A stretch of DNA of 32,025 nt from Deltaproteobacteria bacterium (GTDB lineage Bacteria > Myxococcota_A > Polyangia > Polyangiales > Ga0077539): contig JACRDB010000135.1 in assembly GCA_016218725.1 (NCBI GenBank), positions 1 to 32,025 of the forward strand, given 5' to 3'. The notes below the pieces were generated by a model that had not been told where the DNA came from, searched no databases, and saw only the letters and a list, made by a program, of their open reading frames with translations. Position 1 is the stretch's first letter; each line of letters starts with the position of its first letter. Positions 1 through 2,361 of this stretch are shown piece by piece. Position numbers and translations under genes: made by a program.

Positions 1-2361
1 GCACGCGCGCCCGCAGGCGCCGCAGTGGTTGTTGTCCGTGAGGAGGTCGCGGCAGACGCCCGAGCAGTTGCTGGTGCCCGCCACGCAGGACACGGCGCAC
101 GCGCCGCCGGAGCACACCTGCCCCGAGGGGCACGCGCGCATGCAGGCCCCGCAGTTGGCCAGGTCCGTGGTGAGGTCCCGGCAGACGCCCCCGCAGTTGG
201 TGGTGCCCGAGAGGCAAGACACGGCGCAGGCCCCCGCGGAGCACACCTGCCCCGAGGGGCACGCGCGCCCGCAGACGCCGCAGTTGGCGCGGTCCGTGGC
301 GAGGTCACGGCAGACGCCCAGGCAGTCCGAGAGGCCCGCGCCGCAGGTGGTCTGGCAGCGCCCCGCGACGCAGGCCTGGCCCGGCGCGCAGGCGTCCCCG
401 CAGGCCCCGCAGTGGAGCCGGTCGGTCTGGGGGTCCCGGCAGGTGCCCGCGCAGTTGCTGGTGCCCGCCGCGCAGGAGACGGTGCACACGCGCGCGGAGC
501 ACACCTGCCCGGAGGGGCAGGCGTTCCCGCAGGCCCCGCAGTGGTTGTTGTCCGTGGTGAGGTCCCGGCAGACCCCCATGCACTCGGTGAGCCCCGAGAG
601 GCACGAGAGCGTGCAGGTCCCCCGGGAGCACACGGTGCCCGCGGGGCAGGCGTTGCCGCAGCGGCCGCAGTGGCCCAGGTCGCTGGCGAGGTCCCGGCAG
701 GTGCCCGAGCAGTTGGTGGTGCCCTCCAGGCAGGACACGGCGCAGGCCCCGGCGGAGCACACCTCGCCGGAGGCGCAGGCGCGCCCGCAGGCCCCGCAGT
801 GGTTGCGGTCCGTGGTGACGTCCCGGCAGACCCCCGAGCAGTCCGTCAGCCCCGCCCCGCAGGAGACGGTGCAGGCGCCCCGGGAGCACACCTGCCCGGC
901 GGGGCAGGCGTTGCCGCACGCGCCGCAGTGGTTGTTGTCCGTCTGCGTGTCCCGGCAGGTGCCCGCGCAGTTGGTGGTGCCCTCCACGCAGGACACCTGG
1001 CAGGTACCCATGGAGCACACGCGCCCGGCGGGGCAGCGGGTGCCGCACATCCCGCAGTGGTTGTTGTCCGTCTGCAGGTCCCGGCAGGTGCCCGTGCAGT
1101 CCGTGAGCCCCGACCCGCAGGAGGTCTGGCACGTCCCCATGGAGCACAGCTGCCCAGGCATGCAGCGGGTGCCGCACATCCCGCAGTGGTTGTTGTCCGT
1201 CAGGGTGTCCCTGCAGGTGCCCATGCAGTTGGTGGTGCCCGCCGCGCAGGACACCACGCAGCGCCCCATGGAGCACACCTGGCCGGCCGCGCAGCGCGCG
1301 CCGCAGGCGCCGCAGTGGCCCAGGTCCGTCTGCGTGTCCCGGCAGGTGCCCATGCAGTCCGTGAGCCCCGACCCGCAGGTGGTCTGGCACGTCCCCATGG
1401 AGCACACCTGCCCCGGCATGCAGCGGGTGCCGCAGGTCCCGCAGTTGGCCAGGTCCGTGGTGAGGTCCCGGCAGACGCCCTCACAGGACGCCAGCCCCCC
1501 GCCGCAGGACACGACGCAGCGCCCCATGGAGCACACTTCGCCGCTGCCGCACGCGACGCCACACAGACCGCACCCCAGCCGGTCGCTGGCGAGGTCCCGG
1601 CAGACGCCCATGCAGTCCGAGAAGCCCACCCCGCAGGTGGTCTGGCAGCGCCCCCGCACGCAGAACTGCCCGAAGGGACACGCCATCCCGCAGGCCCCGC
1701 AGTTGTTCGCGTCACCCATGGTGTCCAGGCAGCTCTCGCCGCCGCCCGAGGGCCCCGCGTCGGCGCCCGCCGTGGGGCACCGGGTCTGCCCCTCCATGCA
1801 CCGGATCCGGCAGCGCCCCTCGACGCAGGCGTGGCCCTCCTGGCAGGTGTTCCCGCAGGCCCCGCAGTTGGCCCGGTCCGTGTTCAGGTCGGCGCAGTAG
1901 CGCTCGGCGCCGCCGTCCATGGACCCTGCGCCCATGCACTCCGTGGCGCCCCCCGTGCACATGAACGTGCACGCCCCGTTGGAGCACACCTGGTCACGCC
2001 CGCACGCGGTCCCGCAGGCGCCGCAGTTCATGCTGTCCGTCCGGACCGACGCGCAGCGCAGCCCCGTGGCGGTCATGCAGAGCGTCTCCCCGGTGGTGCA
2101 GTCCGGGACGCACGCCCCGTTCTGGCACACGTTGCCCGCGCCGCAGGCGCTGCCGCAGGCGCCGCAGTGCTGCGAGTCCCCCCGCGGGTCGGCGCAGCGT
2201 CCGGCGCATGCCAGCAGCGGCGCCGGGCAGCTGAGCCCGACCTCCGCCGAGTCCATCCCTCCGGCGTCGCGAGACGACCGGGCGCCCACCACCGGGCTCC
2301 CCTCGCACCCCACGACAAAGAGCGCCCACCCGAGCAGAAGCAAGCACCTCATGGACGACAT
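1..2361 (-). CDS. Cysteine-rich tandem-repeat lipoprotein, N-terminal ~787 aa; C-terminus lies beyond the window start (partial)
   Basis: The minus-strand frame with codons aligned to + positions 1-3, 4-6... is open from 2361 down to 1 (no in-frame tta/cta/tca on +). It is absent from the ORF track because no stop falls inside the window. Translation starts MSSMRCLLLLGWALFVVGC (signal peptide with lipobox-like VVGC). A GGGAG lies 4 nt upstream of ATG 2361; an alternative ATG sits at 2352. At least 18 copies of a ~43-aa unit follow, C.DL.TD..HCGACG..C..GQVCS.G.C...C, with 8 Cys per unit. The + strand ORFs 25..2418 and 29..1900 are antisense artefacts of this gene. Confidence 0.8.
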   Translation of the reverse strand, partial: MSSMRCLLLLGWALFVVGCEGSPVVGARSSRDAGGMDSAEVGLSCPAPLLACAGRCADPRGDSQHCGACGSACGAGNVCQNGACVPDCTTGETLCMTATGLRCASVRTDSMNCGACGTACGRDQVCSNGACTFMCTGGATECMGAGSMDGGAERYCADLNTDRANCGACGNTCQEGHACVEGRCRIRCMEGQTRCPTAGADAGPSGGGESCLDTMGDANNCGACGMACPFGQFCVRGRCQTTCGVGFSDCMGVCRDLASDRLGCGLCGVACGSGEVCSMGRCVVSCGGGLASCEGVCRDLTTDLANCGTCGTRCMPGQVCSMGTCQTTCGSGLTDCMGTCRDTQTDLGHCGACGARCAAGQVCSMGRCVVSCAAGTTNCMGTCRDTLTDNNHCGMCGTRCMPGQLCSMGTCQTSCGSGLTDCTGTCRDLQTDNNHCGMCGTRCPAGRVCSMGTCQVSCVEGTTNCAGTCRDTQTDNNHCGACGNACPAGQVCSRGACTVSCGAGLTDCSGVCRDVTTDRNHCGACGRACASGEVCSAGACAVSCLEGTTNCSGTCRDLASDLGHCGRCGNACPAGTVCSRGTCTLSCLSGLTECMGVCRDLTTDNNHCGACGNACPSGQVCSARVCTVSCAAGTSNCAGTCRDPQTDRLHCGACGDACAPGQACVAGRCQTTCGAGLSDCLGVCRDLATDRANCGVCGRACPSGQVCSAGACAVSCLSGTTNCGGVCRDLTTDLANCGACMRACPSGQVCSGGACAVSCVAGTSNCSGVCRDLLTDNNHCGACGRAC
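22..2250. repeat. Intragenic tandem DNA repeat array, period 129 bp (43 codons), encoding the Cys-rich protein repeats
   Basis: The string gcagtggttgttgtccgt recurs at 22, 538, 925, 1054 and 1183, all multiples of 129 apart. Neighbouring units 1003-1131 and 1132-1260 are near-identical over about 70 nt. Degenerate copies continue to about 2250. Confidence 0.75.

Follow-up and report, generated by a model that had tools for sequence, protein, structure and literature searches.

Plant STIG1 proteins are soluble, single-domain proteins of about 140 aa that bind pollen receptor kinases as ligands. They are grouped with GRI in the Pfam family PF04885, whose Cys-rich module, by profile, is the one that recurs in the bacterial protein described here, and the plant proteins are secreted too. 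The bacterial protein differs from them in being a putative lipoprotein that exceeds 787 aa and contains 17 tandem units rather than a small secreted single-domain protein. That plant STIG1 proteins are ligands, not spacers, is an observation that speaks against a stalk function for the module. In myxobacteria, the Cys-rich tandem repeats of the M. xanthus protein TraA have been proposed to form a disulfide-bonded rigid stalk that presents a functional domain (PMC3325183). As exported Cys-rich tandem repeats on a myxobacterial surface protein, they offer a working analogy for the stalk considered below, although they belong to a different family (TIGR04201), and TraA is anchored C-terminally by MYXO-CTERM and bears its head at the N-terminus, a topology opposite to the one proposed here.

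The gene studied here lies at the edge of a 32,025-nt window (contig JACRDB010000135.1 of assembly GCA_016218725.1), the whole stretch of DNA that was analysed. By its profile matches, the encoded protein is a member of a very large and already catalogued myxobacterial family, and as such an ordinary find. The NCBIfam model NF041328 ("MXAN_6577-like cysteine-rich protein") matched over 7 stretches with 516.6 bits (cutoff 100, E 3.9e-157), and the Pfam Stig1 model over 17 stretches with 278.1 bits (gathering threshold 24.1, E 2.9e-84), with every unit aligning to model positions 37-83 of 85. Neither of the two families is named in the original prediction. No NCBIfam model other than NF041328, including TIGR04201 and other Cys-repeat models, matched at E<=1. 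Proteins of the NF041328 family have the same 43-aa CGxCG units and lipoprotein N-terminus, and we see no essential difference from them. Altogether, 13,694 cluster representatives, mostly from Myxococcota, matched at E<=1e-3, of which 1,604 also passed E<=1e-30, and the labels of the named homologs read Polyangiales, Myxococcales or Deltaproteobacteria. A spacing of 43 aa is normal across the family; homologs typically have 8-13 units, which places the present array (17 or more) at the long end.

In the literature searched we found no experiments on bacterial family members, no paper on MXAN_6577 and no report linking Stig1 to myxobacteria; the single co-occurrence of the two terms was a false match, caused by peptide names like 'Stig_102'. 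A preprint of 2026 that deals with cysteine-rich repeats in eukaryotes notes 27 hits in Myxococcota, but its repeat question is a different one.

Reading frame and N-terminus

From ATG 2361, the minus-strand frame remains open to window position 1, over 787 codons with zero stops; its second ATG is at 2352. As originally predicted, the true gene is on this strand and was missed by the ORF listing. Only other-frame and antisense ORFs (25..2418 +, 29..1900 + and 305..1405 -) are listed over it because the ORF tool omits frames running off the source sequence, so that genes at a window edge vanish silently from such lists. An independent gene call on a Logan contig (L001, from SRR12113407) gave the identical start. 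The window has a GC content of 72.8%, and the astacin gene next to the Stig1-repeat gene has its best relatives in Polyangiales/Myxococcota MAGs (58-65% identity); positions 1-2361 are best explained as roughly the 5' two-thirds of a gene whose source is probably a Myxococcota (Polyangiales-like) genome of 73% GC.

Base composition is a poor guide to the coding strand in this DNA, where long frames are open on both strands. The GC3 of the minus frame is 0.977, which is unable to distinguish it from + frame 1, since the two use the same wobble positions. Both plus-strand ORFs (25..2418 and 29..1900) are long and + frame 1 has a coding-like composition (GC1/2/3 = 0.69/0.58/0.98), and one might on these grounds regard the minus frame as a high-GC artefact of a plus-strand gene. 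We give this reading practically no credence and have rejected it, as the coding strand is decided by homology: Pfam and NCBIfam match the minus frame only, at E 1e-84 and 1e-157 and with homologs in the thousands, whereas neither long plus-strand ORF has a Pfam match and ORF 25..2418 (GC1 0.98, GC3 0.58) does not look coding.

The N-terminus, MSSMRCLLLLGWALFVVGC, has the features expected of a signal peptidase II substrate, namely a basic n-region (R5), a hydrophobic h-region and the lipobox V-V-G-C with Cys19. The rule applied by inspection was a basic n-region, a hydrophobic h-region, the motif [LVI][ASTVI][GAS]C and a Cys at about residue 15-35. The same type of N-terminus is present in most full-length homologs. 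In line with the lipoprotein signal peptide originally claimed, the protein is predicted to be exported, cleaved and lipidated. The linker that follows contains a motif, C-x-G-x-x-V-V-G-G after the lipobox Cys, that recurs in roughly 20 of the top 120 homologs as well as in L009 and L014. At the 5' end and in the divergent intergenic region (Table 1), a consensus scan found no sigma-70-like promoter, and no Rfam family was found.

Table 1. Coordinates of the features in and around the Stig1-repeat gene
Feature	Position	Strand	Basis or remark
Partial CDS, N-terminal 787 aa, Stig1-repeat / MXAN_6577-like cysteine-rich lipoprotein	1..2361	-	open frame, Pfam and NCBIfam
Signal peptide with lipobox (MSSMRCLLLLGWALFVVG/C)	2305..2361	-	read from sequence; predicted lipidated Cys19 codon 2305-2307
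Post-lipobox linker, aa 20-49	2215..2304	-	conserved C-E-G-S-P-V-V-G, then SCPAPLLAC
Three irregular N-terminal Cys-rich units of 47, 53 and 55 aa (aa 50-204)	1750..2214	-	unit parse
13 units (4-16) in strict 43-aa / 129-bp register	73..1749	-	8 Cys each except unit 4 (7 Cys)
Unit 17, edge-cut 24-aa stump	1..72	-	unit parse
3' end and stop codon of the Stig1-repeat gene	beyond window position 1	-	
Putative Shine-Dalgarno-like GAGG, 9 nt 5' of ATG 2361	2371..2374	-	read from sequence
180-nt divergent intergenic region between the Stig1-repeat and PAP2 phosphatase genes	2362..2541	.	
PAP2 phosphatase gene	2542-3081	+	
Longest exact repeat, 43 nt	1438..1480 = 148-190	.	k-mer scan
Exact repeat, 40 nt	1033-1072 = 1162-1201		k-mer scan
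Exact repeat, 32 nt	108-139 = 237-268		k-mer scan

Repeat units and their divergence

The visible protein contains 17 CGxCG-anchored units (3 irregular, 13 strictly of 43 aa and 1 cut by the edge), and the Pfam Stig1 profile likewise reports 17 stretches; the figure of at least 18 units in the original prediction was too high. No further Stig1-type units were found elsewhere in the window. The irregular units are collinear with the first irregular units of several homologs (P0010, P0012, P0041/L009 and L014). The unit consensus (t.C.G.CRDl.TD..hCGaCG.aCp.GqVCS.G.C.vSC..G.) has 8 Cys per 43 aa and agrees with the predicted 8-Cys pattern. Cysteine makes up 136 of the 787 residues (17.3%) and 18.6% of those inside the regular units, and the claimed value of about 19% therefore holds for the regular units and not for the protein overall. 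Over 37 four-unit blocks the scaffold of Cys and Gly is invariant and the number of Cys per unit is even, while the positions between them differ strongly from one unit to another. The junctions alternate between GL-[TS][DE]C and GT-[TS]NC from unit 6 to unit 15, giving a super-period of 86 aa or 258 bp. Tandem Repeats Finder, one of the checks that had been recommended, recovered period 129 with 11.5 copies and a score of 960, and the longer periods 258 and 387 with scores of 1216 and 1249.

At the DNA level the repeats are old and diverged. The 129-bp units, described in the original prediction as near-identical, share 53-84% pairwise identity (mean 69%; 72% matches in Tandem Repeats Finder). 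Fourfold-degenerate sites are the same among units in 62% of comparisons versus 50% expected, which indicates that the duplicates are old and have undergone no homogenisation. The adjacent units at 1003-1131 and 1132-1260, singled out earlier as nearly identical over about 70 nt, do agree at 62 of 70 positions in their best stretch, which contains a 40-nt exact run. However, they are identical at only 101 of 129 positions (78%) over the full unit, and they rank among the most similar adjacent pairs in an array that is not generally like that. Only three exact intragenic repeats of at least 31 nt exist (32, 40 and 43 nt).

These numbers bear on the view that the gene is a contingency locus, in which similar tandem units recombine or slip often and the length of a surface protein varies between strains or within a population. 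Besides the three exact repeats and the one adjacent pair with 89% identity over 70 nt, this view can draw on real differences in unit number: the alignment to the closest homolog (60% identity) has one exact 43-aa gap, and collinear homologs contain from 6 to 17 regular units. However, these differences separate proteins that are merely 54-60% identical, and the sole other assembly of the locus that we found, the short-read contig L001, matches it at every position over 13,109 nt (100% identity); no strain-level variation was seen. This contig starts at window position 1451, within the 43-nt exact repeat, and cuts the gene at aa 303. Because they are not near-identical, with a mean identity of 69% and fourfold sites close to saturation, the units are a poor substrate for frequent recombination. 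A contingency locus is thus very improbable, and the recombination-substrate claim was not supported. What stands of the proposed expansion and contraction is that the number of whole units differs between diverged relatives; stalk length would shift as whole units are added or lost, on an evolutionary rather than a strain time scale.

Relatives and genomic context

No close ortholog was found in the databases searched, where the best matches have 60-66% identity. The closest full-length homolog found is a 1260-aa protein on two JGI metagenome contigs (L014/L015; Ga0208117_100001 and Ga0208628_1000006), which is 60% identical to and collinear with window aa 8-787, and which has the lipobox, the VVGG motif and the three irregular units in common with it. 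It has one extra 43-aa unit at the position of window aa 460/461 and 17 regular units, together with 52-aa units of a second Cys-rich type, at least two in number. Its C-terminal region of about 230 aa lacks a Pfam assignment, and its gene lies among different neighbours. If the present protein has the architecture of this homolog, about 430 further residues would follow beyond the window. In the top 120 homologs, more than 15 different Pfam domains occur in fusion with the array. In many Myxococcota Ser/Thr kinases (P0053, P0054, P0057, P0065, P0067, P0069, P0074 and P0086) it occupies the C-terminal part, past the kinase domain, whereas certain family members consist almost wholly of repeats.

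The rest of the gene was searched for in genome and metagenome contigs with wobble-degenerate DNA patterns (third codon positions N), without a match. When the neighbouring astacin gene was used for an exact-protein look-up, one Logan contig (SRR12113407) was returned, which ends within the array. For the astacin relatives, which come from four MAGs, no gene neighbour is in common with the window, and the nearest 10 kb contain no Stig1 gene. Gene neighbours also differ at each of the loci of P0012, P0010, P0041 and L014, the collinear homologs, for which reason the BNR-propeller and TonB-dependent-receptor genes found 3' of P0010 and P0012 are not transferable as context to the window locus.

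Predicted fold and function of the array

AlphaFold modelled units 7-10 with a pLDDT of 91.1 and a pTM of 0.51, the latter being the kind of value that an elongated module chain should give. Each unit is confidently predicted to fold as a small module of two short beta-hairpins and nothing else. A search for solved structural relatives of the model gave none with significant similarity. The only solved look-alikes are eukaryotic disulfide-rich arrays, namely the elongated chains of disulfide-braced beta-hairpin modules in EGF repeats, TNFR cysteine-rich domains, LRP2 and the Chlamydomonas mastigoneme; EGF- and TNFR-CRD-like modules have no significant fold or sequence similarity to the units. 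The disulfide-rich extracellular or surface module suggested in the original prediction is plausible for an exported Cys-rich repeat protein and is consistent with the modelled units. As one more of about 13,700 representatives, and lacking near-identical recombination-prone units, the single gene matters little. Taken together, the family is very large and can be folded with confidence, with neither a solved structural relative nor experimental work in the literature searched; structure and localisation for any one member would annotate thousands of proteins.

We consider that the protein is probably a lipid-anchored, disulfide-braced stalk with a C-terminal head. It would be exported by Sec, receive its lipid at Cys19 and reach the outer membrane or the cell surface. 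Up to four disulfides may lock each 43-aa unit, and the array would then form a long, protease-resistant, semi-rigid stalk that keeps a functional head off the membrane; this head is assumed by homology and would lie beyond the window. A spacer or presentation role is supported by relatives, because the same anchor-plus-stalk cassette carries different heads in them: a beta-propeller, an RCC1 propeller, a 110-aa domain and an unassigned domain of about 230 aa. Collinear N-terminal cassettes with differing C-termini and neighbours are seen in P0012/P0010, P0041/L009 and L014/L015.

It is also conceivable, if rather doubtful, that the array itself is the working part and no passive spacer, offering a multivalent surface for binding, either as a receptor ligand or as an adhesin towards prey, matrix or kin. 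Membership in PF04885 with plant ligands points in this direction, as do the family members that are almost all repeats and the kinases that bear the identical type of array. The strong variation between invariant Cys and Gly positions would also fit a binding surface, but it resembles neutral drift, given that fourfold sites are near saturation too. The joining of arrays to many unrelated C-terminal domains fits a generic scaffold, and no binding partner is known. A more elaborate proposal parallels the plant STIG1/receptor-kinase pair: Stig1 arrays might be recognition modules of bacterial surface signalling, with lipoproteins engaging kinase-borne arrays homotypically or as ligands and with length tuned by whole-unit indels. 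The shared domain is what speaks for this proposal, which we regard as a long shot.

The stalk reading takes the cysteines to be structural. With Cys at 17% of residues, with D and H/N residues adjoining the CGxCG motif and with weak MopE-like Cu-binding matches in certain homologs, they could instead serve metal binding or redox buffering, in the manner of a metallothionein or a Cu/Zn-sequestering protein. Such a role is highly unlikely: no metal-transport genes occur among the neighbours of the gene, and the H position is often N, leaving no conserved ligand. Moreover, the protein is predicted to be exported, the Cys are invariant and even in number in each unit, and the beta-hairpin fold is predicted confidently without metal.

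Gene identity and coding strand

The cysteine-rich repeat gene (hereafter the Stig1-repeat gene) starts at an ATG at position 2361 on the minus strand, with GAGG 9 nt 5' of it and a second in-frame ATG at 2352, and remains open for 787 codons up to window position 1. The same start was obtained in an independent gene call on the public contig L001 (Logan assembly of SRR12113407). As originally predicted, this is a real gene that has no stop in the window and is absent from the ORF list; it was missed because the listing drops ORFs running off the source, and only other-frame and antisense ORFs are reported over it. 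The GC content of the window is 72.8%, and GC3 reaches 0.977 in the minus frame. Since plus frame 1 shares its wobble positions with the minus frame and equals it in GC3, composition alone cannot choose the strand. Judged by homology, the coding strand is the minus strand: its product matches Pfam Stig1 (PF04885) with an E-value of 2.9e-84 in 17 stretches, and the NCBIfam model NF041328 (‘MXAN_6577-like cysteine-rich protein’) with 516.6 bits, where the cutoff is 100. The two long plus-strand ORFs match no profile, and coding on the plus strand over 1-2361 is thus refuted with near certainty.

Three of the six frames in 1-2481 are open for more than 600 codons (827 codons on the minus strand, and both long plus-strand ORFs), and the antisense frame with shared wobble positions has fully coding-like GC1, GC2 and GC3 values. 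Such overlapping open frames show that ORF length and GC3 are unreliable in repeats of 73% GC.

Features of the window and of homologous loci (contig named where not the window)
Feature	Position	Strand	Remarks
C-x-G-x-x-V-V-G-G motif	2284-2307	-	aa 19-26; also in homologs P0001, P0002, P0005, P0010, P0012, P0033, P0070, L009, L014
Units 1-3			irregular; 47, 53, 55 aa
Units 4-16	73-1749	-	strict 43-aa register
Unit 17			truncated after 24 aa by window edge
Listed ORF over gene	25..2418	+	797 aa
Listed ORF over gene	29..1900	+	623 aa
Listed ORFs over gene		-	several, short
PAP2 phosphatase	2542-3081	+	divergent from Stig1-repeat gene
Astacin (M12A) and ricin-B lectin lipoprotein	3243-4559	+	next after PAP2 gene
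MiaB/RimO-like radical-SAM methylthiotransferase	5438-6799	-	flanks vault-protein homolog
Major vault protein homolog	6964-9405	+	813 aa
PDZ and thioredoxin-like protein	9406-10200	-	flanks vault-protein homolog
HEAT-repeat protein	10268-12820	+	850 aa; flanks vault-protein homolog
Sigma-70 family protein	16043-17677	-	544 aa
~52-aa repeats	L014, about 9650-10100		also in P0001, P0002, P0005, P0010, P0012, P0033, P0070
BNR propeller, TonB-dependent receptor, hypothetical protein	L006, 13642-18740; L008, 4742-9905

Repeat architecture and divergence

The predicted lipoprotein signal and cysteine-rich repeats are both present. The N-terminus, MSSMRCLLLLGWALFVVGC, comprises a basic residue, a hydrophobic core and the lipobox V-V-G-C with Cys at residue 19, and the 30-aa linker that follows carries C-E-G-S-P-V-V-G. 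About 20 of the 120 best homologs, and the collinear loci too, carry the motif C-x-G-x-x-V-V-G-G right behind the cysteine of the lipobox; it could serve as a signal for lipoprotein sorting or surface export, and we know of no description of it. Anchoring on CGxCG delimits 17 units in the visible protein, one fewer than the minimum of 18 proposed before. The regular units share the consensus t.C.G.CRDl.TD..hCGaCG.aCp.GqVCS.G.C.vSC..G., with the expected eight cysteines per 43 aa (seven in unit 4). The earlier estimate of about 19% cysteine applies inside the regular units, but the whole visible protein contains 17.3%. Lysine is absent from its 787 residues, among which are 49 Arg, 45 Asp and 15 Glu; aromatic residues number only 7. 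Across units 6-15, GL-[TS][DE]C and GT-[TS]NC take turns at the junctions. This alternation explains the 258-bp period, to which Tandem Repeats Finder gives a higher score than to the 129-bp one; this suggested check recovered both periods, but with only 72% matches.

Contrary to the earlier claim, the DNA units are not near-identical. Compared in register, pairs of the thirteen 129-bp units are 53-84% identical (mean 69%), and only three exact repeats of at least 31 nt (32, 40 and 43 nt) occur within 1-2400. The units at 1003-1131 and 1132-1260 are 78% identical, and their described near-identity over about 70 nt is fair (62/70 in the best stretch, which holds a 40-nt exact run), but this pair ranks among the most similar adjacent ones. 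At codons where paired units specify the same fourfold-degenerate amino acid, third bases are alike 62% of the time, versus 50% expected from the gene's own codon usage; the duplications are old, with no ongoing homogenisation. A recombination-driven contingency locus, the hypervariability suggested earlier on the basis of near-identical units, is contradicted by the mean unit identity, by fourfold-site agreement near expectation and by the scarcity of exact repeats, and we consider it highly improbable. In the alignment with the L014 protein (from a JGI metagenome contig), a single clean gap falls at window aa 460/461 and spans exactly 43 residues; this is direct sequence evidence for whole-unit changes in array length, here between proteins 40% diverged. 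Contig L001 matches window 1451-14559 with 100% identity, and its first position falls within the 43-nt exact repeat (1438-1480 = 148-190), which marks an assembly break and not a variant. Assemblies from short reads are likely to break up genes of this family, and the unit counts they give are unreliable.

Family, collinear relatives and proposed role

The word-indexed protein search gave 3,767 matches at E<=1e-3 among 8,000 scored candidates. An exhaustive search of 1.84 billion cluster representatives gave 13,694 at E<=1e-3, 6,849 at E<=1e-10 and 1,604 at E<=1e-30, some of them as long as 5,297 aa. Where the source names a match, it assigns it to Polyangiales, Myxococcales, Myxococcota or Deltaproteobacteria, and several matches bear the label ‘MXAN_6577-like cysteine-rich protein’ or ‘Stigma-specific protein, Stig1’. 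Spacing of 43 aa is the family norm; arrays typically have 8-13 units, and more than 20 also occur. The databases searched hold no close ortholog, the best matches being a 368-aa fragment (66% identity) and a 1260-aa protein from two JGI metagenome contigs (L014/L015; 60% over window aa 8-787). The sequence is new, but its kind is already known, named and very common. The searchable literature yielded no experimental study of the bacterial family, which is under-studied as a whole, and this locus gives no special handle on it.

Four sets of collinear relatives share an N-terminal cassette of lipobox, x-G-x-x-V-V-G-G, SCPAPLL.C and three irregular units, and then diverge. P0010 and P0012 have 7 regular units, a 52-aa cysteine-rich repeat type and ~550 aa with weak beta-propeller matches; P0041/L009 has ~7 regular units and a ~110-aa domain; L014/L015 has 17 regular units, at least two 52-aa units and roughly 230 aa without a Pfam assignment. 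Gene neighbours differ between P0010/P0012, P0041/L009 and L014/L015. If the L014 architecture is shared, ~430 residues of the Stig1-repeat protein would lie beyond the window. The second repeat, of ~52 aa (C..GF.DCD....NGCE..L....HCG.CG..C), follows the 43-aa array in many homologs; the visible part of the window protein stops short of it. Among the best 120 matches, more than 15 unrelated Pfam domains occur in fusion with the array, including Vgb-lyase/SGL propellers, RCC1, fibrinogen_C, FGE-sulfatase, PPC, laminin-G and GH8, and in at least eight Ser/Thr kinases the array forms the C-terminal part, behind the kinase domain.

On balance we favour a lipid-anchored protein whose units form a stalk. 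It would be exported by Sec as a lipoprotein and anchored through Cys19; each unit would be braced by up to four disulfides, and the units jointly would make an elongated, robust stalk presenting a swappable C-terminal head outside the cell. A model of a four-unit block (aa 334-505), built from an alignment of 37 in-register blocks of the window protein and homologs, has a mean pLDDT of 91.1 and a pTM of 0.51 and shows short beta-hairpins only, two in each unit; high local confidence with moderate pTM fits a predicted chain of small modules. The cysteine-rich repeats of Myxococcus xanthus TraA, proposed to be a rigid stalk (PMC3325183), offer a myxobacterial precedent, although they (TIGR04201) are unrelated to Stig1 units, and the NCBIfam scan found no TIGR04201 match in the window protein. 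A role for the array itself in binding, as a surface or as a ligand in parallel with plant STIG1, is a less probable alternative to the stalk, and a metal or redox protein seems very unlikely.

Three genes are conserved downstream of P0012 and P0010; they encode a BNR/Asp-box (Ycf48/sortilin-like) propeller protein, a TonB-dependent receptor and a hypothetical protein of 396 aa. The trio may be a module for capture at the surface and uptake, and is missing beside the L009 and L014 homologs.

Other genes in the window

A 180-nt spacer separates the Stig1-repeat gene from the PAP2 gene. Neither PAP2 nor astacin is conserved beside homologous Stig1 genes, so no operon logic can be drawn, and the rest of the window holds no further Stig1 units. 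The astacin/ricin-B protein has its own lipoprotein signal, MQHRALRLASIIALPTLLAGC; its gene is shorter than the longest ORF (2769-4559), and its best relatives come from Polyangiales/Myxococcota MAGs (58-65% identity). The homolog of the eukaryotic major vault protein matches Pfam MVP_shoulder (E 5e-29), Vault_3 (E 4e-7) and, weakly, Band_7/SPFH; bacterial MVP homologs have been described previously (bioRxiv 10.1101/872010). The sigma-70 family protein carries a ~310-aa N-terminal extension before region 2.
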